A DNA stretch of 64,000 bases from assembly GCA_022844165.1 (NCBI GenBank), contig JALHMH010000009.1, positions 32,001 through 96,000 of the forward strand, read 5' to 3'. Shown here one piece after another: positions 15,231-45,052 of the stretch. The DNA comes from Lysobacterales bacterium (GTDB lineage: Bacteria > Pseudomonadota > Gammaproteobacteria > Xanthomonadales > SZUA-5). The notes under the pieces are model-generated. The model was not told where the DNA came from and ran no database searches. It was given only the letters and a program-made list of their open reading frames with translations. Position 1 is the stretch's first letter; each line of letters begins with the position of its first letter. The position numbers were made by a program, and so were the translations under genes.

Positions 15231-15806
15231 ATGATCACTGACCTTCTGCAGCGTTGGCGTAAGGGCGACCGTTCGGCCGAAGCCGAACTGATGAATGTGG
15301 CCTACCCGACGCTGCTCGATCTTGCGCGGGCGCAAGTGCGCCGAAACGGCGGCGTGCTGACGCTGCAGTCAACGGAGCTTGCACATGAGGCTTACGAGCG
15401 CCTCAGCGAGCAGCATGGCGTCGACTGGCAAAACCGCGAGCACTTTTTTGCAATCGCGGCGACGGTGGTTCGGCGCGTGGTCGTCGATTACTTGCGCATG
15501 CGCGGGCGGGATAAACGCGGCGGGGGTTTGCCGTTTGTGGCCCTGGACGAGATCACCGAACGCGAGCAGCCGACCATCGATGAATCGATCGACTGGATCG
15601 AAGTCGATCAGGCACTCAGCGAGTTCGAAGCCATCGATCCGGTGGCGGCACGCGTCGTCGAACTGAAGTTTTTTTCGGGCCTGACCACTGAAGAAATCGC
15701 CGCTGCCATGGATAGTTCCGTCGCAACCGTCGGGCGCCAGTGGCGGTTTGCGCGCGCCTGGCTCGGTCATCGACTCGGCGCCGATCTCGAACCCCAGAGT
15801 CCATGA
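15231..15806 (+). CDS. ECF sigma factor, TIGR02999/ECF43-like (kinase-associated)
   Basis: ITDLLQRWRKGD, LQSTELAHEAYERL, WQNREHFFAIAA, ARVVELKFFSGLT and RQWRFARAWL. Confidence 0.9.
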   Translation: MITDLLQRWRKGDRSAEAELMNVAYPTLLDLARAQVRRNGGVLTLQSTELAHEAYERLSEQHGVDWQNREHFFAIAATVVRRVVVDYLRMRGRDKRGGGLPFVALDEITEREQPTIDESIDWIEVDQALSEFEAIDPVAARVVELKFFSGLTTEEIAAAMDSSVATVGRQWRFARAWLGHRLGADLEPQSP

Positions 15807-18220
15807 GTCTTCAGGCACTGTTCGAGGCAGCGCTGGCGCTCCACCCAAATCAACGCGACGCTTACCTGGCGAAGGCGACGCCCGACCCTGCGGTGCGCGC
15901 ACAAATACTCGCAATGCTCCGCGTCGATGCGCGTCTCGATGGCATGGAAAGCGCCACGCCCGGCATCGATGTGGGCCAGTGGGCGGCGATGTTGAGCGCC
16001 ACCAAAGTCCGGCCAGGCGACATGATTGGCCCATTTCGCGTTTGTGAGCCGCTCGGGCAAGGGGGGATGGGCGTCGTGTTTCGCGCCGAGCGCGACGAGC
16101 CCAAGCAACAGGTGGCAATCAAGATCGTGCGCGGCGGCGAGCTCGATGCACTTTATCGGCAGCGCTTCGATCTGGAACGCCAGGCGCTGGCCGCGCTCGA
16201 TCACCCCTACATCGCACGGCTGATCGATGCCAACGCCCTTGCCGACGGCACACCCTACTACGTGATGGAGTATGTCTCCGGTCTTGCGCTGGACCGCTAC
16301 TGCACGGAACGGCGACTCAGCGTGCGCGACCGCGTGCGGCTCATGCTGCGCATTTGCCAGGCGGTAGCGCATGCACACCGTCATCTGATCGTGCACCGCG
16401 ATCTGAAACCCAGCAATATCCTGATTGACGCCGATGGTTTGCCCAAACTCCTGGATTTCGGAATCGCCAAACGGTTGGGCGGCGATGCGCTGGCTGACAC
16501 TGGCACGGCGCAACGGTTTTTCTCGCCGCGATATGCCGCACCCGAGCAATTTCGTGGTCACTCTGCGAGTGTCGGCACGGATATCTATGCACTCGGTGTA
16601 CTACTTTTCGAAACGCTGACCGGGCGTCTGCCCTTCGATTTCGACGGGCTAAGCCTGGGTGAGATCGATCGCCTGATCGCTACGGTCGCTGCACCGGCGC
16701 CCAGCGCCCGGGCGCATGGAAATCATATCCAGCGGGAGTTGCGTGGCGACCTGGACGGGATCGTACAAAAATGCTTGCGAAAATCGCCCGACGAGCGCTA
16801 CGAATCAGTCCCGCAATTGACCGAGGATCTGAACGCGTGGCTCGATGGATTGCCCGTGCGAGCCAGAGGCGGCCACCAATGGTATCGGCTGCGCAAGTTC
16901 ATTGCCCGCCATCGTCTCGCCGCCAGTATCGGTGCTTTTTCGTTGTTGGCCTTAGGCGCTGCTGCTGCACTGCTTTGGCAGCAGAATTTAGCGTTGCGGC
17001 AGCAACGCGATTTAGCGCAGCGCGCACTGACGATGATGCAGGACGCATTCACGGCCGCAGACCCGATGCGCGCCGCGGGCGCAGAGGTCACCGCGCGACA
17101 GATACTGGAGTCCGCGCGGCGTAAGCTGGAACCGCTGGCGGCCGAACAACCCGCATTGTTCGTGACCTTGGCGCGCACGATCGCGAGCGTCGATGTCTCG
17201 TTGGGTCGTGGCGAACAGGCCTCTGAGTTATTGGGCCAGGCACGGATGGCGGCTGCAGCCGCCGAAATCGAAGACGCCGATTCCGAACTGGCGCTGATGC
17301 ATGCGCGTGCGCTCACCATCGCAAAGCGCCTGCCGGAGGCGCAAGAGCTGCTCGACGACATCGCCACGCGTGGCCACCAGGGCGCAGCTTGGCTGTCAGC
17401 GCAGGGGCGTTTGTGGTCGCGCCGCGGCGATCATTCGCAGGCGGTTTCGATTCTGGAAAACGCAATGCAGGCCCTGTCGGCGAGGCCACCCGGCGATGAG
17501 CTGGCAACGACTACGCGCTACGCGCTGGCCGAAGCGCGCGGCGTAGCCGGCGACAACACAGGAGAACTTCGGGAAATCGACGCCATCCTGGCCTGGCAAA
17601 AGTCCAGTCTGGCAGCCGACCATCCACAGTTGATTGTGACGCGAATGCGCCGCCTGGTTGCACTCTACCTGGCCGCTCAAATGGAGACCGCAGTCGCCGA
17701 AGCACAGCTCATTCTCGAGGACGTTCGAACGATCTATGGGGAGAATGCTGCTGAAGCGGCTTCGGTTTACAACACGCTGGGCCAGGCCCTCGGTAGCCTC
17801 AAGCGTGTCGATGAGGCGCTCGATGCCTATCGTCAGGCGCACGCGATCAGCAGTCGCGCGGCAGGTCGCGACGCAACGAATACCCTGCGCATGCACTTTA
17901 ATCTGGCGCATACCCTGGCTGCGGCTGGAAGAGCCGGCGAGGCCGAGCTTGAGTATCGCGAATTACTGCAACTGGCCGAAAAGCGACGCGGCGGCGCCAA
18001 CGCAACGGTAGCGTATTACCGAATGCAGGCAGCGCTGCTTCAGTTATCGCTGAAGCGGCCTGAGGTGGCCCTGACGATACTGACGGCGGAAGACTGGCAG
18101 CTCGGCTGGGCGGAACTCGACGCCGGCAACCGCAAGCGCTACAGGCTCGCACTGCGCGACGCTTGCGGTTCGTCTCCAGACGAAATCTGCACGATCGCTT
18201 TGGCATTTGTAGCATCTTGA
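15803..18220 (+). CDS. Membrane Hanks-type Ser/Thr kinase 1 with extracytoplasmic TPR-like region
   Basis: LGQGGMGVV, VAIK, HRDLKPSN, DFG, YAAPEQ; TM segment HRLAASIGAFSLLALGAAAALLW; ATGA overlap with the ECF gene. Confidence 0.92.
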   Translation: MSLQALFEAALALHPNQRDAYLAKATPDPAVRAQILAMLRVDARLDGMESATPGIDVGQWAAMLSATKVRPGDMIGPFRVCEPLGQGGMGVVFRAERDEPKQQVAIKIVRGGELDALYRQRFDLERQALAALDHPYIARLIDANALADGTPYYVMEYVSGLALDRYCTERRLSVRDRVRLMLRICQAVAHAHRHLIVHRDLKPSNILIDADGLPKLLDFGIAKRLGGDALADTGTAQRFFSPRYAAPEQFRGHSASVGTDIYALGVLLFETLTGRLPFDFDGLSLGEIDRLIATVAAPAPSARAHGNHIQRELRGDLDGIVQKCLRKSPDERYESVPQLTEDLNAWLDGLPVRARGGHQWYRLRKFIARHRLAASIGAFSLLALGAAAALLWQQNLALRQQRDLAQRALTMMQDAFTAADPMRAAGAEVTARQILESARRKLEPLAAEQPALFVTLARTIASVDVSLGRGEQASELLGQARMAAAAAEIEDADSELALMHARALTIAKRLPEAQELLDDIATRGHQGAAWLSAQGRLWSRRGDHSQAVSILENAMQALSARPPGDELATTTRYALAEARGVAGDNTGELREIDAILAWQKSSLAADHPQLIVTRMRRLVALYLAAQMETAVAEAQLILEDVRTIYGENAAEAASVYNTLGQALGSLKRVDEALDAYRQAHAISSRAAGRDATNTLRMHFNLAHTLAAAGRAGEAELEYRELLQLAEKRRGGANATVAYYRMQAALLQLSLKRPEVALTILTAEDWQLGWAELDAGNRKRYRLALRDACGSSPDEICTIALAFVAS

Positions 18221-19350: not shown

Positions 19351-22260
19351 ATGAGTATTCCAGCCACTTTGCAAGAGCAACTTGCGCGCCTGATGGGATT
19401 GCCGCCGGTCGAGCGCGAGCAGGCGCTGGCGGCGATTGAAGATGCAGAAATGCGCGAAGAGCTCGCGGCGTTGATTGCGGCGCAAATCGCGTCCGAGCCC
19501 ACGACCAATGCCGGCGACCAGGGGCAAGCAGAACCGGGCCTTTCGGTGACCAGCGTCAACCCCGACCTACCGAAAAACCCAATTCCACGTTTAGACGTCC
19601 ACTCTACCGGCTTGCAGGGCAAGCGCATTGGGCCGTACACGCTGGATGCGTGGATCGGCGATGGCGGTTCGGCTTCGGTGTATCGCGCGCATCGACTGGT
19701 TGAGGGCGTACGCCAGACGGTGGCAATCAAGGTCCTGCATCGTGGCATGCAGGCGCCCGAAGCGCGCCAGCAATTCGACCGCGAGCGGCGCGTGCTCTCG
19801 GTGCTGGAGCATGCCTCGATCGCGCGCTGGATCGATGGCGGCGTGACACGCGATGGCGCGGCCTATCTGGTCTTGGAATTTGTCGATGGCCAGAGTATCA
19901 CCAGTTTCGCCAGGGCGAAAAAGCTGTCGCTGCGATCGCGCATCGGGCTGATGATCGAGGTCGCCAACGCAGTCGATGCCGCGCACCGGGCACTGATTGT
20001 GCATCGCGACTTGAAACCTGGAAACTTGCTCGTCAACGGCTCTGGGCAAATCAAACTGCTCGACTTTGGCATCGCCAAACTGCTGGAAGGCGACGGCGAG
20101 AATCAAACGCAAGTGCACATGTTCACACCAGCCTACGCCGCACCCGAACAGCGTAGCGGCGGGACCATCACGACCGCAACCGATGTTTACGCGTTGGGCG
20201 TGATTCTCGGCGAGTTGCTGATCGGCAAACGCTTCAATAGCGAGATCACCACCACGCCCTCGCTGCAAATCGATGACGAAGCTACCGAAGAAGGCACGTT
20301 GCCTGCGCCGCCCGCGCGGCTGCGACAACTGATCAAGGGCGATATCGACAACATTCTGCTCAAAGCGCTGGCCAACGATCCGAACAAGCGCTATAGCTCC
20401 GCAGCCGCGTTCGCCGACGACTTGCGCTGTGCGCTGGAGGGTCGCCCGGTCGCCGCGCATCCACCTTCGCGCAGGTATCGCGCCAGCAAGTTCATCACCC
20501 GAAACAAAATCAGCGTCGGATTAGTGACCGCGCTCAGTATCGGGATCATCGCCGCAAGCATCGTCTCGGTGCTGTTTGCGATCAGTGCCGAGCGCGCACG
20601 AGAACGAGCCGAACTGAGTTTCAGTGCGTCGGTGCACGCGGTCAACAACCTGACGCAGGATCTGGCGAAGAACCTGCGCGAGGCGCGCGGCGTTCGCGCC
20701 GAAACTGTCGCTGGCGTGCTGCAAAAGGCGCAGAAGCTGGTCAGCGACATCGAGCGCACCGATCCAGGCAACATCGCGCTGGAACACGCGCGCATTGGAA
20801 TGTTGATCGGCTTTTCCGGCACCTATCGCAGCATCGCGCGATCAAACGAGGCCGATGCTGCACTCGACGACGCCTGGTCGCGTCTGGAGGCGCTGCGAGA
20901 TCGCGGCATCGAAACGCCATTGCCGTTGAAGATCGACGCGCTGCTCGCGCGTTCGGAGGCGCACTACTACACGATGGACTGGCAGTCTTCCGCGGATGCT
21001 GCGCGTCAGGCGTCGGCGCTGAGCGCGGGTGACTCCACGCGCGCATGGCGCGCGCGCAAACAACTGGCGATCGCGTTGTTTTTCGCCAACGAGCTTAAGG
21101 CCGTGCACGCACTCCACACCTCGGAACTAGCAATTGAGCGCACGCTGGCATCGGACGACCTTGATGCCGACGGCCTGGCGCACGCGCTCGACTGCTACAC
21201 GACGATCGCATCGGCGCTCGCCTTGCTCGGTGAGCACCAAAACGCAGAGGCGTTGCGCGTTCATGCGCGTGCGGCAACACAGCAAGCGTTGCAACGCTTT
21301 CCAAATTCTCAAGACCTGCTGCTCACCGATTTGCGCTTGACCAATCTCGAAGCCAACTATTTGTTGCGGCTGGACCATATCGACGAAGGTCTGGCGTTGG
21401 CGCAAACTGGGCTGGAACTGGCGAATGAGGCGATCGTGGCGAATCCGAATTCGATGGCATTCCGTTTCGTTGCCAGATCGTTCTACAACGTTCGTGCAAG
21501 AGTGTTTCGCCAGCGCAATCAGGTTGAATCGGAACTCGCTGATCTGCGCGCAATCCGTGATTCGCACAGGGAGCTTTCCGATCGCGATTCTGGCAATAGG
21601 TTCTTGCGCGCCGAGTTGTCGTTTGCTGAGCGGCGCGTGGCGAATGCGCTGTTGTTGCGGAGCAAGGCGCAACCGGATGCCATAGTCGAGTCCGAGCGGT
21701 CAACGTTGGCAGCGCTTCAGATCGACCGCGAATTGTTGCAACCGGCCCCATCGCGTCCGTTTGCGCGGCGCTATCTTGCCGCCTCACTGGAACAACTAGG
21801 CGATCTTCGTAAGACGCAAATGCGTTTCGACGACGCCGATGCTGCTTACCAGGAGAGTTTGCAATTGCGACTCGCGCTGGCGCGAGATTTTCCGTCCGAG
21901 CCGGGTTGGCTTCGCTTGGTGGCAATCAGCTACGAGGCAATCAAGGACCTCGCAGCTAGGCGCGATGACCTTGATGGTGCGATTCGTGCACAACGCGAAG
22001 CGGTGAGCCTTTGGGAGGCGCTTCGGGCGCAATCGAAGGAGCCCAGCGATTCGCTCTCTTGGTTCGATAGCCAGTTGTTGCTGGTTGAGGCATTGCTGCT
22101 CCAGAGGAACAACCCAGCGCTAACTGCCGAGGCAGTCCAAATACTCGGACGGTTGCGCGATTACGCAAAGGAGCATGCTCAATCTCTGCAAGCAAGACCC
22201 GATCTCGTCAAAGAACTCGCTCGCCTGTATGAGCGCGCATCACCCGGAGGAACACGCTGA
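19351..22260 (+). CDS. Membrane Hanks-type Ser/Thr kinase 2 with long TPR-like C-terminus
   Basis: IGDGGSASVY, VAIK, HRDLKPGN, DFG, FTPAYAAPEQ; TM segment NKISVGLVTALSIGIIAASIVSVLFAI. Confidence 0.92.
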   Translation: MSIPATLQEQLARLMGLPPVEREQALAAIEDAEMREELAALIAAQIASEPTTNAGDQGQAEPGLSVTSVNPDLPKNPIPRLDVHSTGLQGKRIGPYTLDAWIGDGGSASVYRAHRLVEGVRQTVAIKVLHRGMQAPEARQQFDRERRVLSVLEHASIARWIDGGVTRDGAAYLVLEFVDGQSITSFARAKKLSLRSRIGLMIEVANAVDAAHRALIVHRDLKPGNLLVNGSGQIKLLDFGIAKLLEGDGENQTQVHMFTPAYAAPEQRSGGTITTATDVYALGVILGELLIGKRFNSEITTTPSLQIDDEATEEGTLPAPPARLRQLIKGDIDNILLKALANDPNKRYSSAAAFADDLRCALEGRPVAAHPPSRRYRASKFITRNKISVGLVTALSIGIIAASIVSVLFAISAERARERAELSFSASVHAVNNLTQDLAKNLREARGVRAETVAGVLQKAQKLVSDIERTDPGNIALEHARIGMLIGFSGTYRSIARSNEADAALDDAWSRLEALRDRGIETPLPLKIDALLARSEAHYYTMDWQSSADAARQASALSAGDSTRAWRARKQLAIALFFANELKAVHALHTSELAIERTLASDDLDADGLAHALDCYTTIASALALLGEHQNAEALRVHARAATQQALQRFPNSQDLLLTDLRLTNLEANYLLRLDHIDEGLALAQTGLELANEAIVANPNSMAFRFVARSFYNVRARVFRQRNQVESELADLRAIRDSHRELSDRDSGNRFLRAELSFAERRVANALLLRSKAQPDAIVESERSTLAALQIDRELLQPAPSRPFARRYLAASLEQLGDLRKTQMRFDDADAAYQESLQLRLALARDFPSEPGWLRLVAISYEAIKDLAARRDDLDGAIRAQREAVSLWEALRAQSKEPSDSLSWFDSQLLLVEALLLQRNNPALTAEAVQILGRLRDYAKEHAQSLQARPDLVKELARLYERASPGGTR

Positions 22261-23777
22261 TGTCCATTGACCGATACGCATCGTCGCTGCGTTACGCGCT
22301 GATATTGCCAGCGCTGCTGGCAAGCGCCGCCTATGCGCAAACCATCGGCCTCAACCAAACCGTGGTTGCCGAGTTCAACAACGCCGCAGAATTCCAAACG
22401 CTCTCCAATGCCGGCTGGATCTTTCGCGCGGGAAATGGCACCGGTACGCAGAGCTGCGCCACACCGGGTAACATCGACGCTTGCGGTTTCGGTTTTTTTG
22501 CTGATGGCGCGCAAGGCACGGCGCGCGGTTTGGCGGCAGGCAACACGCAGGGCCGTTGGATCATCACGCCACCTATCATTTTCGGGAGCAGCGGCAACGT
22601 CAGTATCGTTCTGCGCAAAGTGAACTCAGGGACGGGAGGCCTTGATCTTCGCGAGAGCGGTGGCGCGTCGGATACGCAAGAGATGTCCGATAACGGTATT
22701 GAGCCTGGAACAGACAAAGGCAGCGGCGCCTGTCCGGCGGGAAACAGCTTCTGCGCGCTGCGCAACTTGCGTAGCTCCGGCGACGCCACCTCCGGCGGCG
22801 AGCCGAGTTGTGCGAACTTGTTCACACCGGCCAATCCTGGTGTGGGCTTGAGCTATTGCACAGTGCAAATCAACGCGTCGGAGTTACAAAATTTCGGCAC
22901 CGGCGTGCATCGCCTCGCGATCAAGCTGCGTTCCTCGGGTTCCACCGTGGGCAGCAATGTGGACATGTTGCTGGATCGCATCGAGATCAACACTGGCAAC
23001 AACGATCAGGTACCCGCGCAGGCGTTCATCAGCCACGGCTTCACTGGCAGCAACCCTGTGCTCGGCCTGTATCGCCATCCGATTGCGGGCCACACCGCAG
23101 CCAACTTGTCCTTGGTAACGGCGCTAACGAGTAACGATTTTGCTGCGCTCGACTTCAGTCCCAACGGCAACACGCTGTACGGGATCGTCGGCTCTCCGCC
23201 GACGCTGGTGCGCGTAGATACCAACACAGGCTCGCGAACGCCGATTGGCGCAGTGACAGGGCTGCTATCCAGCAACGAGTTCATCCGTGGCTTGATGGTC
23301 GATCCACGCAGCGGCGAGAGCTATTTGATGACGCGCAGTTTCGCCGATGCGCAGTCGCGCCTGTATTTGTTCGATCTGACCAATGCCGAGGCGAACCTCC
23401 AGGCCGGCGTCAACAACGGCGGTGATTTCCGCGCCTCGGCAAGCTCCATCGACTGCGCAGGACGCCTCTACAGCGTCGACACCACCAGCCCGCCGGGCGG
23501 GCGCCTGTATCGCGTCAATCGCATCGATGGCTCCGTTACGCTGGTGGGCAACACCGGCTACACCTCCAGCCTGTTCCATGGACCTATCGACTTCGACAAT
23601 GCGAACGATCGGTTGATGGGTTGGGTGCAAGCCCAAAATGGCGCCTACGTCGGCTACGGCAGCTACAGCTTGAGCACCGGATTCTTCAGCGTGATCTCGA
23701 CCACGCCGCAACTGTCGATGGGCGCCGGCGCGATCAACAGCCGCTGCTGGGAGCGATTTGCAGATGGTTTTGAGTAG
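22260..23777 (+). CDS. Secreted protein with jelly-roll-like N-domain, beta-propeller-like C-domain and FADGFE terminus
   Basis: Signal peptide ending AYA-Q; ALDFSPNGNTLYG / LYRVNRIDGSVTLVG blade-like repeats; TGATG coupling to kinase 2. Confidence 0.85.
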   Translation: MSIDRYASSLRYALILPALLASAAYAQTIGLNQTVVAEFNNAAEFQTLSNAGWIFRAGNGTGTQSCATPGNIDACGFGFFADGAQGTARGLAAGNTQGRWIITPPIIFGSSGNVSIVLRKVNSGTGGLDLRESGGASDTQEMSDNGIEPGTDKGSGACPAGNSFCALRNLRSSGDATSGGEPSCANLFTPANPGVGLSYCTVQINASELQNFGTGVHRLAIKLRSSGSTVGSNVDMLLDRIEINTGNNDQVPAQAFISHGFTGSNPVLGLYRHPIAGHTAANLSLVTALTSNDFAALDFSPNGNTLYGIVGSPPTLVRVDTNTGSRTPIGAVTGLLSSNEFIRGLMVDPRSGESYLMTRSFADAQSRLYLFDLTNAEANLQAGVNNGGDFRASASSIDCAGRLYSVDTTSPPGGRLYRVNRIDGSVTLVGNTGYTSSLFHGPIDFDNANDRLMGWVQAQNGAYVGYGSYSLSTGFFSVISTTPQLSMGAGAINSRCWERFADGFE

Positions 23778-23885
23778 GCGCCCGGCGCGCGAGCACTGAA
23801 CCCGAGAATGACTCACGTTCTGTTGCGTGCCTGTTGAGTTACGATGAGTCTGGAGATACTTCAGGTGCCTGTCAGGAGACCGCTC

Positions 23886-24890
23886 ATGCGATGGGTTCTC
23901 GCGCTTGCCTTATTGCTAGCCAACAAAGCGCTGGCTGAGATCTACGTGACCGATGGCGTGTCCAACGGCAACCCGCCCAACCGTATCAGTGTGTGGCCCG
24001 ATACTGCCACCGGCAATCCGGCCCCCGTGCGGCGTATCGTCGGCTCGCGCACACAGATCGGCAACGGCAGCAATGGTCTGCCCGACATCATCACGATCAG
24101 CAGCCGCCAGGAAATCTTGATCACCAACAACTCGCAATTGCGCATCCAGACGTTTCAGCTCGGCGCCAACGGCGACGTATTGCCCTTGCGTGAATTGTTG
24201 CTCACTGGCCAGCCCAAAGGGTTGGCTTACATCCCGATCACTGATGAAATCGTCACCGCACCGTCGAATTTTTCTGCCATCCACTTCTATCCGCGCGCAG
24301 CCACCGGAAGCGCGCCGACCACGCGCGTGATCAGCGGCAACAACACCGGAATCGGCTCCATTCCGACCGACATCGTTTACTTGTTCGGCGTCGATCAGAT
24401 TGCGGTGTCGGACTATGTGCCGGGAGACCCAAATTTCGCCAAGCGAATTCAGGTTTTTGCACGCACCGCCTCCGGCAATACCGCGCCAGTGCGGGTGATC
24501 CAAGGTCCTGCAACACAACTTGGCGCTTGCAACGGCCGTGCCGCTGGCATCACCACCGATCACACCGGCACCGAGATCATCATCGGCTGCTTCAATCAAA
24601 TCCTGACCTTCGGCCCGGCAGCCAGTGGCGATGCTGCGCCACTGCGGCAGATTACAGGTGTGGCGACAACGCTTGTCGCCATTTCCGACGTCACCTTTCT
24701 ATTCGGTAACCAGGGCCAACCCTCAACGCTGGTCGTGACGCAGTTCAATGCCACCAACTCTGTCGCGCGCTTCGACGCCGCCGCGAGCGGCGATGTTGCG
24801 CCGCTCACGAGCCTGAATAGCCTCGCGCTGTTTCAAGCGCGCTCGGTCGCTGCCGAGGTGATCACATTGTTGCAGGATGGCTTCGAATAG
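23886..24890 (+). CDS. Secreted repeat (NHL-like propeller) protein with LLQDGFE terminus
   Basis: AGGAGA SD before ATG 23886; signal peptide; six A[ST]G..AP.R.I.G-type repeats. Confidence 0.85.
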   Translation: MRWVLALALLLANKALAEIYVTDGVSNGNPPNRISVWPDTATGNPAPVRRIVGSRTQIGNGSNGLPDIITISSRQEILITNNSQLRIQTFQLGANGDVLPLRELLLTGQPKGLAYIPITDEIVTAPSNFSAIHFYPRAATGSAPTTRVISGNNTGIGSIPTDIVYLFGVDQIAVSDYVPGDPNFAKRIQVFARTASGNTAPVRVIQGPATQLGACNGRAAGITTDHTGTEIIIGCFNQILTFGPAASGDAAPLRQITGVATTLVAISDVTFLFGNQGQPSTLVVTQFNATNSVARFDAAASGDVAPLTSLNSLALFQARSVAAEVITLLQDGFE

Positions 24891-24963
24891 CCGCTAGTGG
24901 CAGCCGACGACTGTGACGCGATCAGATCGCGCTGCAGTCGATTCGACCTGATCAGCATCGCCG

Positions 24964-25872
24964 CTATTCGGCCGGGCTGGTTCTGGGTTTCAAGGTTCTC
25001 GCAAACAGGTCCAATGTCGCCTGCCATGCTTGAGCGGCAGCTTCGGCGTGGAATCGGGGCGTGGTGTCGTTGTGGAACCCGTGCTGGGTTCCGGGCAGTT
25101 GCAGTTTGCTGTATCGAACGCCGTTGGCCTGCATGGCTGCCTCGAAGCTGGGCCAGTTGGCATTGATGCGTTCGTCGTTCGCTGCGAGCACGACCAGCAG
25201 TTCCGCCTTGATGCTCGGAACGTCCTCGATTGCGGCACCCATGCCATAAAACGGTGCGGCTGCGCGCAACGATGGCAATTGTGTTGCCAACCAGTTGACC
25301 AGACCGCCGCCCCAGCAGAACCCCACCGCGCCGAGCTGCCCGTTGCCACCTTCGACGCCGAGCAAATACTGCGCAGCCGCTAAAAAGTCGGCGCGCGACT
25401 TGGCCTGGTCGAGCGTTTGAAACTTCGCGCGCGCGTCGTCCTCATTGCCCGGGTAACCACCCAGCGGAAAGAGCGCGTCGGGCGCCAATGTAATGTACCC
25501 CTCGAGCGCAAAGCGTCGCGCGACATCCTCGATGTGCGGATTCAAACCGCGATTCTCGTGCGCCACCAAAACCAGCGGTGCTGCAGTGGTGAGCTCGGCC
25601 GGGCGGACCAAATACGCTCGCCCGCGATCATGACCTGGCGACGCGAATTCGATGAACTCGGCTATCAGTCGCGCGTCGTCCGGCGCAACTTTCTGTGCTT
25701 GCGCGAAGCGCGGCGACAGCAAGGTCAGCATCGTCGCCGCCGTCATCGCGCCGGTCGCAAATCGCCCCGCATCGCGGAGGAATGCACGCCGATCGATGAT
25801 ACCGTGCACGTACTGATCGAATAGCCGCCACACGCCGGGATGGAAATCGATGGTCGGGTCGGGTTCTGTCAT
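24964..25872 (-). CDS. Dienelactone hydrolase family protein (YghX-like)
   Basis: HENRGLNPHIEDVARR, GFCWGG nucleophile motif, HGFHND; Tat-like IDRRAFL. Confidence 0.9.
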   Translation of the reverse strand: MTEPDPTIDFHPGVWRLFDQYVHGIIDRRAFLRDAGRFATGAMTAATMLTLLSPRFAQAQKVAPDDARLIAEFIEFASPGHDRGRAYLVRPAELTTAAPLVLVAHENRGLNPHIEDVARRFALEGYITLAPDALFPLGGYPGNEDDARAKFQTLDQAKSRADFLAAAQYLLGVEGGNGQLGAVGFCWGGGLVNWLATQLPSLRAAAPFYGMGAAIEDVPSIKAELLVVLAANDERINANWPSFEAAMQANGVRYSKLQLPGTQHGFHNDTTPRFHAEAAAQAWQATLDLFARTLKPRTSPAE

Positions 25873-25959
25873 GGCGTCAACCTCTTTTGATACCGTTCAC
25901 CCAATGATCGCAGCGCAAGCGTGTTGGCGACGTTTAGCTCCGCAGCGGCGAGCAGCGGC

Positions 25960-28900
25960 TCATCCAACCAGATCCAGCCAATCGTCCGCCGTCAACCCTG
26001 CGGCGAGGCTCTGGCCGGCGTCATCAAAAATGGCTGCGCTCCACTCACGTTTGCGCGCCTGCAATTCCTGGATGTGCTGCTCGACGGTGTCGCTCGCAAT
26101 CAGACGGTAGACGAAGACCGGTTTGTCCTGGCCAATGCGATGGGCACGATCCGTCGCCTGGGCCTCAGCTGCCGGGTTCCACCACGGATCGTAGTGGATC
26201 ACCGTGTCTGCCGCAGTCAGATTCAAACCAAATCCGCCGGCCTTCAAGCTGATCAGGAACACCGCCACTTCGCCGCGCTGAAAGCGCTGTACCGGCGTGG
26301 CGCGGTCGTCGGTTTGTCCGGTGAGCTTGGTGTAACGGATTCGGTGCGCCACCAGTTCGGCTTCGATCAACGACAGCATGCTGGTGAATTGGCTGAACAC
26401 CAGAATGCGTCGTCCCGCTTGCGTCAGTTCGCTGAGCATATCGACGAGCACCTCTAGTTTTGCCGATGGTGCGCGCACCTCATGGTCCAATAGTCGCGGA
26501 TCGCAACACACCTGCCGCAAACGTGTGAGCCCCTCGAGCACGCGAATCCGACTGCGCTCCCAAAGCCCCTTGGCGATCAGGTCCTTCAATTCGGCCAGAT
26601 ACACAGCGCGCAAGCTGTCGTACAACTCGCGTTGGCGGCCTTCGAGCGTCAACGAACGCACGATCTCGGTCTTCGGCGGCAGGTCTGCTATCACCTGGTC
26701 TTTGGTTCGCCGCAACAGGAACGGGCGAATGCGGCGACGCAGCCGTTCGCGTGCGTCCACATCGCGCAATTTCTCGATGGGCTTGCGATAGAGGCGGGTA
26801 AAGTCGGTCTTGTTACCGAGTAATCCCGGCAACAGGAAATCGAACTGCGCCCAGAGTTCGCCCAAGTGGTTCTCGAGCGGCGTGCCCGTCAGGCACAAAC
26901 GCTGACGCGCGTCGAGTTTACGTGCCGCACGTGCGGCCAGTGTTGCCGGGTTCTTGACCATCTGCGACTCGTCGAGCACGACGATATGCCAGGGTTGTGA
27001 CGCGAATGCCGCACCATCGCGCGACAGCACGGGATAGGTTGTCAGTACAATGTCAGCGCCGGCAATCGACTTCAGGCGTTTACCGCGCTCGGCGCCGGCA
27101 TAAACAACAACACTCAGGCTCGGCGCAAAACGCGCGACTTCTGCGCTCCAGTTCGGTAACACGCTCTTCGGGCAGACCACCAAGGCAGGCCGATCCAGAC
27201 GCCCTTCTTCCTGCTCGCCAAGCAGATGTGCCAAGACCTGTACGGTTTTGCCCAGCCCCATGTCGTCAGCCAGGATGCCCGACAGGCCGCCCTGCCCTAG
27301 AAAGCGCATCCACGCCAGACCCTCGACCTGGTAACTGCGCAGCGTCGCGCGAAGCTCTTTCGGGACAGGCGTTGCAGGCAGACCCGAGTACCGGGCGAGA
27401 CGTTCGGCCAATAGCCGGACCGCCGGTGCGCTGGAAAAGAGCCGTTCGCCATCCGCAAGCTCGGTCTCCAGCTCGATCAACGCCGCGGCGCGCGCGCGCG
27501 GCAACACAACCGTGCGCTGATCGCTACTGCCGGCATCGCCAAGTTCCTCCAGCGTGCGCAGGATTGCCCGGAGTTTGCCGCTGGCGACCGGCAATCGTTT
27601 TTCGCCAGGCAAGCTCAACGCGATGACAGTGTCGGCCGTCGGCAGGTCGGCAAAGCGCCCCTCGCGCAAGCCGGCGCGCAGGCTCGGCAATAATTCGATC
27701 CGTTCGCCATCGACCTCAATGCCCAAGGACAGCCGCAGCTGGCCCGGCAGCTCCTCAACATCGGCGACGAACCGGTAGTCGGTATCGATGAGCTTCAGCG
27801 GGAAACGTGGCCCGTACTCGATGCGCCAACCCTCGCTGCGAAGGCGCGGCAACATCACATAACAGAACTCGTTCAGGCTCTGCGGGTCGCCATCGGGATT
27901 GATGATCCAATCCGCCCCGGTCAGGCCCGGGTGGTCGATCAACGCGTGGCGATTGGAAGTCAAGCCGAGCTGCTTCAGGCGCAGTGCGAATCCGCGCTCC
28001 TGGGTGCGATCGCGCGGCTCGACCGAAACGCGTTCGCCGTCGTAGCTGGTCATTGCCGGCGCCGGATCCGTTTCGCCAACACGCTGCGCACCGTAGGCAA
28101 ACGACAAACGCGCGAAAGCGATCAACTGAGCGCTGCGCCGGCCACGCTGTTCGATCGTTCCCGCGCTCTGGTGCAGCGACAGAATCGGCAGCGGCGTGCG
28201 CGGCTCGCTTGCGAGCGTTGGCAAGACCGGAGGCGCCGGGAAATTCGCCGGGAGTGCATCGGAGAACTGCGGCGGCCAAACCGCAGCCGCTGCCGGCAGT
28301 AGCGGCGGCAATGCCAGAAGCTCACTCGCAAGTCTGGGTGTCAGCGGCCAGTCCAAGGCGCCGATTTGCCGCGCCAGGCGATCGACATAGTGCCAGACGG
28401 TACCAATACGCACGAGGTCTGTCGCCAGGCCCGTGCGCGGATGTAGCCGTTGTGCACCGCGCGAATCGATCTCCCAGGTCCATTCCGGATTGCGGCCAGG
28501 GCCCGGCACCACCAGGAGCGCAGGTTCGCGCCAGGCGAAAGCACCTTGACCGGCGATCGTCTGAAGCACCGCCCTGGCATCTTCGGGCAAGATCCACCAG
28601 ACCTGCGATTCGAGATGCGAGCCGCGAATCGGCGCCAATCTTACCGCCAGTTGCCGCGCAGCGGGCATCGCCAGCGACTCGGGCAGATCACGCAGTATCG
28701 AAAGCGGCACCTCTTCGAAGCGCCAGCTGCTGCCGTGAGCGGTCCATCGCCCAGGACGCACTGCGAGCGCTTGCGGCGGGCCAAGTGCGGTGCCCAGAAA
28801 CCCGTAACGACCAGCCACCGGGGCGATGATCGCGCGCGCCGTCTGCGGTTCGGCCGCGATCTCTACGTGCGCGCTTTGCAGCAGGGCCGCGGCATGTTTG

Positions 28901-29148
28901 CATGCCACCTGCACCGGACAACTGCAGTGGCTTTCGATCCGCCATCGCCCGTTTCTCAATCGCGCGCGAACATGAACTCGATAGGGATGTCTGCGCCCGC
29001 CGCGAACTTCTCCCAACACCGCACGTTCGTCCTGGCCTTCGGACCATTCCAACCACAGAACACGACGCTCGCGCACGTACGCCAGACCACGCCGCAAGTC
29101 GGTCTCGGTGAAGTGCGCTGCAAGCGAATCGGTGGAGATAGACCACAT
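25960..29148 (-). CDS. SWIM zinc finger / SNF2-family helicase
   Basis: CSCPVQVACKH; LADDMGLGKT, DESQ, LTGTPLEN, SLKAGGFGLNL, QATDRAHRIGQ; start uncertain. Confidence 0.92.
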   Translation of the reverse strand: MWSISTDSLAAHFTETDLRRGLAYVRERRVLWLEWSEGQDERAVLGEVRGGRRHPYRVHVRARLRNGRWRIESHCSCPVQVACKHAAALLQSAHVEIAAEPQTARAIIAPVAGRYGFLGTALGPPQALAVRPGRWTAHGSSWRFEEVPLSILRDLPESLAMPAARQLAVRLAPIRGSHLESQVWWILPEDARAVLQTIAGQGAFAWREPALLVVPGPGRNPEWTWEIDSRGAQRLHPRTGLATDLVRIGTVWHYVDRLARQIGALDWPLTPRLASELLALPPLLPAAAAVWPPQFSDALPANFPAPPVLPTLASEPRTPLPILSLHQSAGTIEQRGRRSAQLIAFARLSFAYGAQRVGETDPAPAMTSYDGERVSVEPRDRTQERGFALRLKQLGLTSNRHALIDHPGLTGADWIINPDGDPQSLNEFCYVMLPRLRSEGWRIEYGPRFPLKLIDTDYRFVADVEELPGQLRLSLGIEVDGERIELLPSLRAGLREGRFADLPTADTVIALSLPGEKRLPVASGKLRAILRTLEELGDAGSSDQRTVVLPRARAAALIELETELADGERLFSSAPAVRLLAERLARYSGLPATPVPKELRATLRSYQVEGLAWMRFLGQGGLSGILADDMGLGKTVQVLAHLLGEQEEGRLDRPALVVCPKSVLPNWSAEVARFAPSLSVVVYAGAERGKRLKSIAGADIVLTTYPVLSRDGAAFASQPWHIVVLDESQMVKNPATLAARAARKLDARQRLCLTGTPLENHLGELWAQFDFLLPGLLGNKTDFTRLYRKPIEKLRDVDARERLRRRIRPFLLRRTKDQVIADLPPKTEIVRSLTLEGRQRELYDSLRAVYLAELKDLIAKGLWERSRIRVLEGLTRLRQVCCDPRLLDHEVRAPSAKLEVLVDMLSELTQAGRRILVFSQFTSMLSLIEAELVAHRIRYTKLTGQTDDRATPVQRFQRGEVAVFLISLKAGGFGLNLTAADTVIHYDPWWNPAAEAQATDRAHRIGQDKPVFVYRLIASDTVEQHIQELQARKREWSAAIFDDAGQSLAAGLTADDWLDLVG

Positions 29149-29373
29149 GGGGCGCAATATCGGCAGTTGGCGCGCAACGGGACGCAACAGGACAGCCTAA
29201 CAGTCCTAAGGTGCTGGTGTCAGTGAATCCGCCATGGGTTCTTGCACCAACTGAGAGCCTGTTGAATGTCAAACTTGAGGAATGCTCCGCAAACCGTTGG
29301 TTTGGCGAATGGAAAAGCGGTGTTATGCTTGAGGGGACGTCGCCCTCTGTGCGATTCGCGTGGATCGAAGACC

Positions 29374-29853
29374 ATGAAAAAAATCGCCGCCTTGCTGTTA
29401 TTGATGGTGTCGATCGTCGGCAGCGCGCAAGACCAACCGCCGGAAGGCGCGGTCTGGCAGTACTCGATTTACCCAACAGGAATCGGGACCGCTGGCTATT
29501 TTTGCGTGATCAACCGCCTGCCCGCAAACCTGGCGACGAATCAGGCCGGTTTTGCGGCGAGCGAAGGTGCGTTCTTCACCGAGTCGTCGCCTGGCCTGCC
29601 GCTGTTGCCACCCAGTGGCCTGGCGTTTCACATCCTGGACTGCCTTGTGCCGTCCTGGACCGATTTCAGATTCTGTTTTCAGGCGCCAACACCCTGGTAC
29701 ACAGGCTTTTATCCGAACCAGCGCATCGCCCAAATTAACGTTTTTATGTGCGCCAACCCACCGCCGCAAGGCTTCATGTGGGACTACTACGTGACCATGC
29801 GGCGCGAGGCCTATTTTCCGCCGCCGCTGATGTCGAACGGCTTCGAGCCGTGA
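29374..29853 (+). CDS. Small secreted hypothetical protein ending MSNGFEP
   Basis: MKKIAALLLLMVSIVGSA signal peptide; 4 Cys; abuts holC. Confidence 0.75.
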   Translation: MKKIAALLLLMVSIVGSAQDQPPEGAVWQYSIYPTGIGTAGYFCVINRLPANLATNQAGFAASEGAFFTESSPGLPLLPPSGLAFHILDCLVPSWTDFRFCFQAPTPWYTGFYPNQRIAQINVFMCANPPPQGFMWDYYVTMRREAYFPPPLMSNGFEP

Positions 29854-30276
29854 ATGCCCAAAGCTGATTTTTATCTGATCGGCAAACCGCGCTTCAGCAG
29901 CGATCCGTCGTTGCTGGTCTGCGAATTGGCGAAGCGGGCCTACGCTGCTGATCTGCCGACCTTGATTCTGGTGCGGTCGGTTGAGGACGCGGAACTGCTC
30001 GACGACAAACTCTGGGCATTCGAGGACGACGCCTTCGTGCCGCACCAGATTGCCGGCCAGGATGAGGACGATGTGACGCCGATCTTGATCGTGCCGCCCG
30101 GCGCGGTGGTCGCGTCGCGTTCGCTGATCATCAATCTGCGCGACGAATGTGCCAGCGGCGAATTCGATACCGTCAAGGAAGTCGTTCCCGCCGACCCGCG
30201 CGAGCGCGACGGCTCGCGGGAACGTTGGGCCGAATATCGACGCCGCGGATTTGACGTGCGCAAGTTCGACATGTGA
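29854..30276 (+). CDS. holC: DNA polymerase III chi subunit
   Basis: MPKADFYLI, LDDKLWAF..DAFVPH and RERWAEYRRRG. Confidence 0.93.
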   Translation: MPKADFYLIGKPRFSSDPSLLVCELAKRAYAADLPTLILVRSVEDAELLDDKLWAFEDDAFVPHQIAGQDEDDVTPILIVPPGAVVASRSLIINLRDECASGEFDTVKEVVPADPRERDGSRERWAEYRRRGFDVRKFDM

Positions 30277-42670: not shown

Positions 42671-43144
42671 ATGTCTGTCGCTCACGAAGCCCTGATCCGT
42701 CGCTTCTACGATGCGTTTGCGCGCCGCGATGCCGAAGCGATGTCCGCTTGTTATCACACCGATGCGCGATTCTCAGATCCGGCATTCCCGTCGCTGAAGG
42801 GTGCCGAGATCGGCGATATGTGGCGAATGTTGTGCAGCCGCGCGCAGCAGTTCTCGCTCGAATACTCGAACGTCTCAGCAAGTGGCGATCGTGGCTCGGC
42901 GCATTGGGAGCCGCGTTATCTTTTCAGCAAGACCGGGCGCGTCGTGCATAACATCATCGATGCACAGTTTCGCTTTGCCGACGGCTTGATCATCGAACAC
43001 ACCGATATGTTCGACTTTTGGCGCTGGAGCCGACAGGCTCTCGGCCCACCCGGATGGCTGCTTGGGTGGTCTGGGTTCATGCGCAATAAAGTGCAGGCCG
43101 AAGCCGCCAAGGGTCTGCGCGCGTTCCGCGGCAAGGGCTCATGA
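42671..43144 (+). CDS. SnoaL-like / NTF2-family protein
   Basis: LIRRFYDAFARRDAEAMSACYH..F.DPAF and DGLIIEHTDMFDFWRW. Confidence 0.88.
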   Translation: MSVAHEALIRRFYDAFARRDAEAMSACYHTDARFSDPAFPSLKGAEIGDMWRMLCSRAQQFSLEYSNVSASGDRGSAHWEPRYLFSKTGRVVHNIIDAQFRFADGLIIEHTDMFDFWRWSRQALGPPGWLLGWSGFMRNKVQAEAAKGLRAFRGKGS

Positions 43145-43740
43145 GCACCTCTGGGCCTGAGGAAATTACACTGCTGATCGCGGACGCGCAGGCCGGCAGT
43201 GCGCCGGCGCAAGAGAAGCTCTATGCGCACGTCTACCGAGAGTTGCACCGTCTGGCCGAGCGCCAACTGCGTGGCGATCGCGATCACGGCGGGGCAACGT
43301 CGCTGGTCCATGAAGCCTACTTTCGTTTGTCGCGTTCACCCGGCAGCTTTAATGATCGGCAGCACTTTTTCGCCACTGCGGCGCGTGCGATGCGGCAGAT
43401 TTTGATCGACCGCGCACGCGAACGGCTCGCCGAGCGACGCGGGGGCGGTGCCCGGGTCGAGTCGCTGGACGGCCTGGCTATGGACATCGCGGTCGCCGGC
43501 GGCGATGAGGAGTTGTTGGCGCTCAATCAAGCGCTCGATCAGTTGGGTGTGCTCGACGCCCGCCTGGCACAGGTGGTCGAAATGCGCTTCTTCGGTGGCC
43601 TGGAGCTAACCGAAATTGCGCCGTTGCTGCAAGTCTCCGAACGCACGCTGAAACGCGACTGGCGTCGCGCGCGAGCGTTTTTGTACGACGCGCTGGGCGA
43701 CAAAGCGCCGATCGGCGCGGATGCCGATGCCGGCGATTGA
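43141..43740 (+). CDS. ECF sigma factor, TIGR02999/ECF43-like
   Basis: EITLLI..AQAG, ATSLVHEAYFRL, DRQHFFATAARAMRQILID, VVEMRFFGGL and KRDWRRARAFL. Confidence 0.92.
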   Translation: MSTSGPEEITLLIADAQAGSAPAQEKLYAHVYRELHRLAERQLRGDRDHGGATSLVHEAYFRLSRSPGSFNDRQHFFATAARAMRQILIDRARERLAERRGGGARVESLDGLAMDIAVAGGDEELLALNQALDQLGVLDARLAQVVEMRFFGGLELTEIAPLLQVSERTLKRDWRRARAFLYDALGDKAPIGADADAGD

Positions 43741-45052
43741 GGCCGATTGGAAGACAGTGTCCGATGCGTTCGACCGAATCGTCGAACTGCAGGATGACGA
43801 GCGACAACTGGCACTCCGCGGGCTACCCGAGAGTTTGCGCAGCCGCGTTCAGCGGCTGCTCGACGCCGATGCGCGCGAAGCCGGAATGCTCGAACAACGC
43901 GAAGAAGTTCTCGCGCCCATCGCCGCCGGTGCGACGCCCGTGCTTGGCGCGGGCTGGCGCATCGTCGAGTTGCTCGGCCGCGGCGGAATGGGCGAGGTTT
44001 GGCTCGCCGAACGTTGCCAGGGTGACGTGACGCAACGTGTTGCCGTTAAACTGCTCAAACGCGGGATGGATTCGGACGGGGTGCTGCGACGGTTCTTGCA
44101 GGAACGGCGCATTCTCGCAAAACTCGATCATCCGGCGATCGCGGGCTTGCGCGACGCTGGCATTGCCGAAGATGGTCGACCGTTTCTGGCGATGGACTAT
44201 ATCCAGGGCGAGCCGCTGATCGCCTACGCACGACGCCATAACCTGTCGCTGGCGCAACGGCTGGAGTTGCTCTCCGCGGTGGCGCGCGCTGTCGATCACG
44301 CGCACCGGCAGCTCATCGTGCATCGCGACTTAAAGCCGAGCAATGTCCTGGTCGATGATCGAGGCCAACCGCATCTACTGGACTTTGGCATCGCCAAAGT
44401 GCTTGCCGACGACCCCGACGAGATCACCCTCACCATCACCGGTGTGCGCGTGTTGTCGCCGGCGTATGCCGCACCGGAGCAGGTGCGAGGCGAAGATGTC
44501 GGCGTCGCCGCCGATGTATTTGGCCTTGGGGTGCTGATGTATCAACTATTGGTGGGCCGCCTGCCGCATCAACGCAGCGGTCGTGTCGAACGATTGGCGG
44601 ACGAAATCGCCAATGAGATTGCGCCATTGCCAAGCGCTGCGGCCGCCGCAGCCTGGTTGGCGGTACAGTCATCGCCCCTGAATGAGCGCGTGCCGTGGGC
44701 GCGAAACTTGCGCGGCGATCTCGACACCATCATGCTCAAAGCGATTCACCCTGAAGCACAGCGTCGTTATGCCTCGACAGCTGAATTGGCGGACGACATC
44801 GAACGTCACCGCCGCGGCCGTCCGATTTCCGCGCGCCCCGACAGTCGTTGGTATCGCTTCGCCAAGTTCGTTCATCGTCACCGCGTAGGCGTGCTGGCGG
44901 CCATTGCGGCAGTGCTGACGCTGATCGTGGCTATCGCGATCACGGCGGCACACCAGCAACATGCGATCGACCTGTTACGCGCCGAGAACGAGCGCTTGAA
45001 GGCAGAAATCGAAGCATTGCGGCAACCGAGGCCTAGCGCGATTCCACGATGA
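43721..45052 (+). CDS. Membrane Ser/Thr kinase 3 without a large extracytoplasmic domain
   Basis: LGRGGMGEVW, VAVK, HRDLKPSN, DFG, YAAPEQ; TM segment, then a ~33-aa coiled-coil-like tail. Confidence 0.9.
   Translation: MPMPAIEADWKTVSDAFDRIVELQDDERQLALRGLPESLRSRVQRLLDADAREAGMLEQREEVLAPIAAGATPVLGAGWRIVELLGRGGMGEVWLAERCQGDVTQRVAVKLLKRGMDSDGVLRRFLQERRILAKLDHPAIAGLRDAGIAEDGRPFLAMDYIQGEPLIAYARRHNLSLAQRLELLSAVARAVDHAHRQLIVHRDLKPSNVLVDDRGQPHLLDFGIAKVLADDPDEITLTITGVRVLSPAYAAPEQVRGEDVGVAADVFGLGVLMYQLLVGRLPHQRSGRVERLADEIANEIAPLPSAAAAAAWLAVQSSPLNERVPWARNLRGDLDTIMLKAIHPEAQRRYASTAELADDIERHRRGRPISARPDSRWYRFAKFVHRHRVGVLAAIAAVLTLIVAIAITAAHQQHAIDLLRAENERLKAEIEALRQPRPSAIPR

Follow-up and report, generated by a model that had tools for sequence, protein, structure and literature searches.

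A short C-terminal Gly-Phe-Glu tail on exported proteins of the Lysobacterales as a candidate protein-sorting signal

The window analyzed here is a stretch of 64,000 nucleotides from the genome of a Lysobacterales bacterium (contig JALHMH010000009.1 of assembly GCA_022844165.1, positions 32,001 to 96,000), and it encodes three exported proteins that share a short C-terminal tail around Gly-Phe-Glu (the GFE tail). We hold with modest confidence that this tail is a lineage-wide short sorting or surface-retention tag, recognized in trans by a putative envelope factor. All three open reading frames (ORFs) lie on the forward strand. ORF1 (22260..23777) encodes a 505-residue exported protein with DUF6923/DUF4394 and ends in ...RCWERFADGFE, the tail itself being the final nine residues, W-E-R-F-A-D-G-F-E (23748..23774). 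ORF2 (23886..24890; an alternative ATG is open upstream at 23844) encodes a 334-residue exported NHL/lactonase-like beta-propeller ending in ...EVITLLQDGFE, with the tail I-T-L-L-Q-D-G-F-E at 24861..24887. ORF3 (29374..29853, also open from 29266) encodes a 159-residue exported protein of no known family, which ends in ...PPPLMSNGFEP and thus carries one additional residue behind the tail (P-L-M-S-N-G-F-E-P, 29824..29850). Sec-type N-termini are predicted for all three proteins when the starts are taken as 22260, 23886 and 29374. The signal peptide of ORF1, as read from its residues, would span ~26 residues (22260..22337), with a basic n-region, a hydrophobic core and an A-x-A motif, ending in ...AAYA before QT. 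ORF3 had no match in Pfam or NCBIfam, and its best score in an ESM Atlas search (0.79) was uninformative. The original prediction, which proposed a sorting or anchoring signal, had described these three endings on unrelated bodies. Both points were borne out: the translations end as described, and the bodies differ in domain content and show no significant mutual similarity (best BLASTP E value 0.10).

The tail was strongly enriched at C-termini across the source genome of the window (G000; 4.68 Mb in 59 contigs), for which our own crude gene caller gave 3,864 genes covering 90% of the genome. GFE was the most frequent C-terminal tripeptide, ending 63 of the 3,864 genes against 24 for the runner-up, AAA, and against a chance expectation of 0.8 genes calculated from 291 internal GFE occurrences in 1,398,384 residues. 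Among 44,225 six-frame ORFs with a stop and at least 60 residues, 96 ended in GFE plus 0 to 2 residues, and these were mostly long ORFs with the fuller tail. The terminal tetrapeptides were NGFE (38 genes), DGFE (14) and SGFE (7). The pattern [LIVMFW][FLIVMW]x[NDSTG]GFE followed by 0 to 2 residues was found in 69 genes, 56 of which stop at E and 13 of which have one or two more residues. The consensus is D-x-[LVIM]-[FL]-x-[NDS]-G-F-E, then 0 to 3 residues. In the 56 tails ending at E, D occupied position -9 in 28, L, V, I or M occupied -7 in all 56, and F (44) or L (11) occupied -6; A (33) or R (8) was preferred at -5 and N (37), D (12) or S (7) at -4, and G-F-E was invariant. Relatives also allow H, Q and T at -4. 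The originally proposed consensus, [FLM]-x-[DN]-G-F-E, is therefore the core of a longer conserved stretch that starts from the D at -9. Its placement at or one residue from the C-terminus holds for most tails, but 1 to 3 extra residues are tolerated and loop or internal copies exist.

The enrichment at C-termini over internal positions also appeared with the extended motif, which in six-frame ORFs of at least 150 residues was found 70 times within two residues of the stop and 26 times elsewhere. With a slightly looser pattern applied to the called genes, 73 matches were terminal, 7 lay in the first 70 residues and 25 were mid-protein. Three of the seven early matches, directly behind signal peptides, look genuine, as do about 9 to 10 of the 25 mid-protein matches, which lie at domain ends preceding Pro/Thr linkers. 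Two further exported proteins at C39:12069-15128, ~4 kb downstream of pilMNOPQ, have degenerate GFE-like ends (...DSMFVYGFEI and ...GLQASGFESE). The third commonest C-terminal tetrapeptide of the genome was LVTG (10 genes, e.g., C3:14239-15580 and C15:102497-102958), belonging to one repeated family that ends in ...KGIGYARSLVTG. This family probably consists of transposases or other proteins of mobile elements, and LVTG is no second tag.

The proteins that carry the tail are exported and otherwise diverse. Signal-peptide-like N-termini were found in 62 of the 69 tagged proteins versus 1,263 among the 3,783 remaining genes (p 5e-22, odds ratio 17.7). This heuristic is crude, and trying several start codons for each gene raises its background. 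Several of the remaining seven tagged proteins also look signal-peptide-like by eye. The 69 proteins form 49 BLAST clusters, and domain scans of the 66 with at least 150 residues against Pfam (2025 copy) and NCBIfam 20.0 matched 61 Pfam families. The most frequent were Beta_helix (7), Sortilin-Vps10 (BNR; 6), NosD (5) and DUF5122 (4), followed by FG-GAP, Peptidase_S8 and reprolysin-like M12 (3 each); M14, Endonuclease_1, Calx-beta and PKD were also found. NCBIfam contributed choice-of-anchor Q (8), choice-of-anchor D (1) and a PHA depolymerase model (3), and one or two tagged proteins match M36 peptidase models named rhombosortase-, type IX secretion system (T9SS)- or myxosortase-dependent. 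The choice-of-anchor and M36 matches imply that the GFE tail occupies the anchor slot, that is, it fills the place that known C-terminal sorting signals hold on the same cargo families elsewhere. The view of a portable short peptide on unrelated proteins with signal peptides, enriched among such proteins, was thus upheld genome-wide, and one ground that the original prediction had named for its rejection, a motif no commoner at the C-termini of exported proteins than in other proteins or at internal positions, did not apply.

The tail lies outside the folded domains. No Pfam or NCBIfam model covers it, either in the 66 scanned proteins or in eight 40-residue C-termini searched at E values up to 10, where the ends of cargo domains were the sole matches. 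The domain models stop short of the C-terminus by 18 (choice_anch_Q), 10 (PKD/Ig) and 22 residues (Endonuclease_1). In the AlphaFold model of ORF2, with a mean predicted local distance difference test score (pLDDT) of 89.1, the last strand spans residues 320-326 and the final eight residues are coil, the last four having a mean pLDDT of ~50. In that of ORF1 (mean pLDDT 74.6), the last strand spans residues 487-493 and residues 499-505 have a pLDDT below 50. Both models predict the tail to be a flexible, disordered extension behind the last folded domain. The original prediction had named, as grounds for its own rejection, that the tail might be the last strand of an already described domain; this is ruled out by the ends of the domain models, which lie 10 to 22 residues before the C-terminus, and by the coil in both AlphaFold models. 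Its statement that no transmembrane helix or basic tail follows also held, the proteins ending at the Glu of GFE or 1 to 3 residues past it, these residues being mostly small or acidic.

Selection acts on the peptide and not on the DNA. The codons of the tail vary at third positions (GGC/GGT/GGG/GGA, GAG/GAA, TTC/TTT), the stop codons behind it are TGA (25), TAG (17) and TAA (14), and the information content past the stop is ~0. An origin of the tail from mobile DNA or a repeat is ruled out by this synonymous variation, by the use of three stop codons and by the lack of conservation past the stop. Judged from the sequences, the tail is conserved at the protein level only.

Within protein families, the tail was retained to different depths. 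Among ORF1 homologues with 52 to 100% identity, 47 of 50 retain the tail, which they keep as ...C-W-x-x-F-x-[NDS]-G-F-E plus 0 or 1 residue or, more loosely described, as GF[ED] plus 0 to 3 residues, and two of the three without it are shorter records of 324 and 405 residues. The ORF2 orthologue in a Lysobacterales metagenome-assembled genome (L001, 83% identity) has an identical ending. Of 120 more distant ORF2 homologues, 10 match the GFE-tail pattern and most others end in an unrelated conserved ...ILVPN; one ends in a hydrophobic (transmembrane) and basic tail. Five distant homologues (P0055, P0059, P0061, P0066 and P0085), one of them named as from Thermoanaerobaculia, have a longer end, [IV]F-x-D-G-F-E-[SAR]-G-D-x-x-x-W-S-x4. 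The short tail in the Lysobacterales may represent the first half of a terminal module with a wider distribution. One tagged protein is an S8 peptidase, and among 120 listed homologues in its family the tail ends 29, which include nearly all homologues above ~56% identity. Tahibacter S8 proteins end in ...IF-x-N-G-F-[EQ] plus 0 to 2 residues, Dokdonella S8 proteins have the motif internally with a further C-terminal module behind it, and among the homologues in the relative G031 the motif is found at the terminus as well as internally, in the latter case 64 residues from the end. The S8 homologue of G028, a tag-negative relative, is longer and has other C-terminal domains, and the motif was not seen in the part examined. 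Other conserved ends without a transmembrane helix also occur in this S8 family (P0243-P0290; Dokdonella and others), namely ...W-x-Y-x3-G-[AD]-[AP]-I-T-I-P, ...Y-Y-D-D-I-x-I-x-P-x-P and ...G-[IL]-T-P-x8-10-G-[RK]-K; these endings may be further undescribed terminal modules.

Most families of the order Lysobacterales/Xanthomonadales have the tail. A DNA search for F-x-[ND]-G-F-E-stop matched in 36 of 39 relatives, with 11 to 56 matches in all 22 genomes of the same family as the source genome and 0 to 1 matches for a reversed-pattern control. There were zero matches in G023 and G034 (family f2) and in G028 (family f7), each of which is 99 to 100% complete. When the stop requirement was dropped, G036 gave 104 matches, G033 25, G028 5, G023 1 and G034 0. 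Of the 25 sites in G033, 21 were examined: 16 lay 0 to 3 residues from the stop, two at 9 to 11 residues and three at 145 to 207 residues, and 12 of the 21 had 1 to 3 extra residues. Counts of stop-adjacent motifs therefore underestimate the carriers.

An order-wide survey used the pattern [LF]-F-x-[ND]-G-F-E in 109 genomes at least 90% complete, which are samples in which related genomes are not statistically independent. The pattern occurred throughout families f1 (10/10), f3 (7/7), f4 (13/13), f5 (2/2), f6 (2/2) and f9 (10/10) and in part of f2 (1/13), f7 (8/13), f8 (9/13), f10 (12/13) and f12 (7/12). Within f7, the genus g14 had 0 to 2 matches (9 genomes) versus 12 to 17 in g291 (3 genomes), and within f10, g295 had 0 to 3 (9 genomes) versus 14 to 16 in g17 (2 genomes). 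Like g291, the genus g285 is tag-rich in contrast to g14, and the tag-rich g19, g293 and g303 contrast with the tag-free g289, g296, g310 and g316. The distribution between sister genera is thus all or none, with 0 to 3 versus 11 to 17 motifs. In 298 sampled genomes from the rest of the class, at most 2 matches were found, similar to the control, so the tail is at background level there.

A sorting tag read in trans is the best reading because it brings together the enrichment, the portability, the disorder outside the domains, the selection at the protein level, the all-or-none distribution and the anchor slot; the distribution between genera implies a dedicated reader. In the scheme that we propose, the N-terminal signal peptide predicted from the sequences would bring the protein to the periplasm, and the cargo would fold with its tail remaining disordered, as in the two structure models. 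A putative reader would then bind the exposed F-x-[ND]-G-F-E turn and set the final location of the protein. By analogy with known systems, the preferred outcome would be the retention or docking at the surface of exoenzymes and adhesins that a type II secretion system (T2SS) secretes, the second choice being selection for outer-membrane translocation. We favor surface retention within this scheme because surface attachment is the outcome for all signals whose place the tail takes on the same cargo, because tag-free sister genera retain the T2SS, and because extra residues and loop positions would suit a binding epitope. A circumstantial observation comes from Wenzhouxiangella AB-CW3 of the same order: according to excerpts of its description (PMC7691419), no protease activity was detected in the medium, and its authors, who mention a core T2SS, assume that the proteases are anchored in the outer membrane. 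This would bear on surface retention if AB-CW3 carries the tag. More tentatively, and with some doubt, we suggest a linear code in the style of the KDEL and PTS1 (peroxisomal targeting signal 1) peptides, in which a nine-residue disordered tail on ~2% of the proteome would let a dedicated reader decide between release and cell retention of type-II-secreted enzymes and adhesins, the reader having been gained or lost as a unit with all tags several times in the Lysobacterales.

Several results weigh against this sorting-tag reading. The motif is not strictly terminal, which weakens models needing a free C-terminus, though it fits a docking epitope. Likewise, in one S8 subclade the motif lies ~18 to 20 residues before the end, in a loop preceding the last strand. 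Candidate readers were profiled by presence or absence in 27 to 32 genomes grouped by the tag counts of the order survey, and the co-occurring machinery that the original prediction suggested looking for was not found, as none of four candidate families tracks the tag. T2SSC (GspC) was present in 17 of 27 genomes, including the tag-negative g14 (4/4) and g295 (3/3), and it went undetected in G029 and G030, both of which carry the tag. The extracytoplasmic function (ECF) sigma factor family PF07638 was present in 27 of 27, and its counts failed to separate the groups in f7 and f10. A secretin-adjacent protein of no known family (C3:222356-224014 in the source genome) was present in 25 of 32, also in g14 and g295. 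The BNR/sortilin-like NF045728 matched in 23 of 32 at E values up to 1e-10, none above the curated cut-off and without separating the groups. In addition, a rough comparison of 18 stretches of 14 to 20 kb around tagged genes in G026, G029 and G035, in which a filter on the GC content of third codon positions recovered 7 of the 18 tagged genes, showed no family but housekeeping ones recurring in at least three genomes. The tail is also not needed for type II secretion as such, since tag-negative genera keep GspC and secretins.

Other comparisons of secretion genes stand beside these. Secretin counts showed no separation of tag-rich from tag-free groups. Endonuclease I is absent from the two tag-negative genomes tested, so an orthologue comparison was not possible there. 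The source genome has a pilMNOPQ locus and a cluster of pseudopilin and secretin genes; apart from these it encodes a GspC-GspD pair, with a PDZ-like domain at the C-terminus of GspC. Directly downstream of a GspD-like secretin, C3:222356-224014 encodes an exported protein of ~550 residues without a Pfam family; its homologues adjoin secretins in G036, G031 and G028, and up to 10 to 11 matches occur in G033 and G036.

The GspC gene also bears on another explanation, in which the tail would be a selection signal for the T2SS, acting as a linear ligand (a C-terminal peptide or an N-G beta-turn finger) with the GspC PDZ domain as its likeliest target. It would then supply the secretion signal so far missing for some of the T2SS substrates of this order. 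The cargo is indeed of the classical T2SS exoenzyme type, and homologues of the source GspC, which adjoins GspD, occur in 34 of 39 relatives and in neither of two tag-negative f2 genomes; the G031 GspC also has a PDZ-like domain. In the accessible part of a study in Vibrio cholerae (PMC12369372), the PDZ domain of EpsC was required for secretion of VesB, and the signal could be grafted. We nevertheless consider a T2SS signal unlikely. The profile of T2SSC described above, present in g14 and g295 and undetected in G029 and G030, argues against it, and GspC-PDZ is widespread in Gammaproteobacteria, yet the tag is at background in the 298 genomes outside the order. Moreover, a canonical PDZ ligand presents a free carboxylate at a fixed distance from the recognized residues. 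Of the source-genome tails, 56 of 69 end at E. The extra residues at 12 of the 21 G033 sites and the loop position of the S8 copy would speak against recognition of a free carboxylate. For the PDZ region of GspC (alignment A3, residues 205-305) paired with the C-terminal 35 residues of one tagged protein, a complex prediction gave no answer (score 0.00) and counts neither for nor against binding.

The 0 to 3 variable residues behind the invariant G-F-E, and the internal copies that sit precisely where domains end and Pro/Thr linkers begin or that immediately follow signal peptides, would also be expected of a site of processing or transpeptidation. In that case, a peptidase of the envelope would cut in or after [ND]-G-F-E, the leaving group having 1 to 4 residues, and would trim the protein or transfer it to an acceptor such as lipid, lipopolysaccharide or peptidoglycan. 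Sortase-type systems act in this manner, although the GFE tail lacks their membrane-spanning stop-transfer segment. As far as the consulted part of a preprint on such domains goes (10.1101/2023.06.07.544157), the characterized small C-terminal sorting signals are all cleaved. However, no candidate enzyme was identified, cleavage at the loop motif of the S8 subclade, before the last beta-strand, would cut the fold, and position -4 takes N, D and S, as well as H, Q and T in relatives, which is looser than an Asx-specific ligase needs. We regard cleavage at the tail as quite unlikely.

Regulatory genes recur near the tagged genes. In the source genome, the recurrent neighbors are Ser/Thr kinases, ECF sigma factors and two-component regulators. 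Sixteen of 45 Ser/Thr kinase paralogues (BLAST) lie within four genes of a tagged gene, against a background of 13% (binomial p 1e-4), a number that 0 of 2,000 permutations reached. Of 24 PF07638-type ECF sigma factors, 22 adjoin one of these kinases, some of which have tetratricopeptide (TPR) repeats. These sigma/kinase modules look like regulators of exoprotein genes. In the window, a Ser/Thr kinase with one transmembrane segment and an extracytoplasmic C-terminal region of ~550 residues is encoded at 19351..22260 on the forward strand (Pkinase E value 1.3e-40); it is one of the 45 paralogues. Its stop overlaps the start of ORF1, and the kinase, ORF1 and ORF2 are therefore probably cotranscribed. 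At 15231..18220, also on the forward strand, an ECF sigma factor (PF07638) and a Ser/Thr kinase with TPR repeats form a second regulator pair of the type recurring beside tagged genes. We treat this pair and the kinase at 19351-22260 as genomic context. The large expansion of membrane Ser/Thr kinases paired with ECF sigma factors is visible in the window at 15231-18220, 19351-22260 and ~43141-45052, as well as genome-wide. The remaining neighbors in the window are a dienelactone hydrolase, an SNF2 helicase, holC and a FemAB-like gene. The holC gene, for the DNA polymerase III chi subunit, starts at 29854 and abuts the stop of ORF3 (29851-29853); a small exported protein would not be expected to share an operon with it.

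Such a neighborhood would agree with the tail being a ligand or feedback signal for envelope sensors (the extracytoplasmic domains of Ser/Thr kinase plus ECF sigma modules, or PDZ proteases, in the way that DegS senses C-termini of outer-membrane proteins) that reports the export load instead of directing sorting. For this idea speak the 16 of 45 kinases near tagged genes, the overlap of the window kinase with ORF1 and the TPR repeats of some paralogues. We find it highly improbable, as an identical tail on ~70 proteins could not give 45 sensors specificity. With the sensor domain of the window kinase as query, no homologue was detected in five genomes including the tag-rich G031 and G036, which also speaks against this domain as a universal reader. 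Furthermore, PF07638 counts do not follow the tag in f7 and f10, and no kinase family recurred near tags in G026, G029 and G035.

The lack of machinery in the four profile tests and in the neighborhood analysis would be expected if the tail had no reader. It could then be a self-sufficient physicochemical device, such as an aromatic and acidic cap against periplasmic tail-specific proteases or a means of adhesion to lipopolysaccharide via divalent cations, or a remnant of the longer IFxDGFESGDxSxWS module, which exists in distant homologues including the one named Thermoanaerobaculia. The tolerance of the motif for several positions in a protein is also compatible with this. However, the switch between sister genera (0 to 3 versus 11 to 17) is difficult to account for unless a partner was lost or gained, and an invariant G-F-E on unrelated proteins with free synonymous change indicates strong, specific selection on a disordered peptide. 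A tail without a reader is in our judgment distinctly unlikely, and a tag recognized in trans remains our preferred reading.

We know of no general linear signal for the choice among release, surface and type II routes in Gram-negative bacteria, a long-standing question. A portable nine-residue tag on ~70 proteins per genome would offer a direct experimental handle, and sister genera with and without it provide a contrast for finding the reader by comparative genomics. Tahibacter, a named and cultured carrier, is suited to experiments. The tag would also allow better annotation of the hundreds of exoproteins labeled "hypothetical" in genomes and metagenome-assembled genomes of the Lysobacterales, and it could be used as a small tag for display or secretion.

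The closest known systems are the small C-terminal sorting domains, which are tripartite, their motif being followed by a transmembrane helix and a cluster of Arg residues, as described in the portion consulted of the Haft preprint (10.1101/2023.06.07.544157). Like these domains (LPXTG, PEP-CTERM, GlyGly-CTERM, MYXO-CTERM and IPTL-CTERM), the GFE tail has a short signature near the C-terminus, occurs dozens of times per genome, on exported proteins that are unrelated to each other, shows a patchy, lineage-restricted distribution and is found on the same cargo, including choice-of-anchor domains and M36 peptidases. Unlike them, it shares the motif feature alone, has neither a transmembrane segment nor an Arg/Lys cluster, and no cognate sorting enzyme was found for it among the four families and the neighborhoods examined. 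About 15 proteins of the source genome have IPTL-CTERM-like tails (...[IV]P[TV][LN]..., a hydrophobic helix and RRR), e.g., g2794 and g2846 (C24-C27) and g3819 (C56). In L001, a Calx-beta protein upstream of the ORF2 orthologue (L001:2-2809) also has an IPTL-CTERM-like end, ...VPIPTLDQRGLLALMLAVLAIGALTLRRR. A classical tripartite system therefore coexists with the GFE tail in these genomes.

The C-terminal domain (CTD) of T9SS substrates is likewise a signal located at the C-terminus of Sec-exported enzymes and adhesins, and it too lacks a transmembrane helix. This CTD is a folded beta-sandwich of ~70 to 100 residues in Bacteroidota and serves for export and surface attachment, whereas the GFE tail has nine residues, is modeled as coil with a pLDDT of at most 50 and occurs in Gammaproteobacteria; the original prediction had rightly called it far shorter. 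In function, the tail would be an analogue of this CTD or of PEP-CTERM, GlyGly-CTERM or MYXO-CTERM. The outer-membrane-protein beta-signal and the DegS-activating YxF-COOH end have a terminal aromatic residue in the last strand of a beta-barrel and are read in the periplasm. The GFE tail resembles the beta-signal as a short, aromatic-rich C-terminal peptide of exported proteins, but its last conserved residue is Glu, it lies outside the fold and its cargo is soluble (beta-propellers, beta-helices, peptidases and nucleases). It is thus not the terminal-Phe signal of the beta-barrel assembly machinery, as had also been stated. Type I secretion system substrates have a C-terminal secretion signal and no N-terminal Sec signal peptide, in contrast to the 62 of 69 GFE carriers that are signal-peptide-like. 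The T2SS substrates that depend on the PDZ domain of GspC, such as VesB, carry transferable secretion information on a subset of the cargo, which is read by the C-terminal domain of GspC (PMC12369372, consulted in part), and carriers of the GFE tail likewise encode a GspC with a PDZ-like domain. In VesB, however, the information resides in a folded Ig domain and not in a linear tail, and the presence of GspC does not follow the GFE tag.

Our literature searches returned no description of this tail, and the Haft preprint (10.1101/2023.06.07.544157) contains none of the terms GFE, IPTL, Xanthomonadales and Lysobacter. By analogy of principle alone, the tail would resemble the PTS1 -SKL and KDEL peptides, which are also very short, unstructured, portable C-terminal peptides and are read by a soluble or membrane receptor. 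These signals are eukaryotic, serve other compartments and differ in sequence. The GFE tail may thus be an undescribed C-terminal protein-sorting signal, one that may be categorically new if its reader is of a new type.

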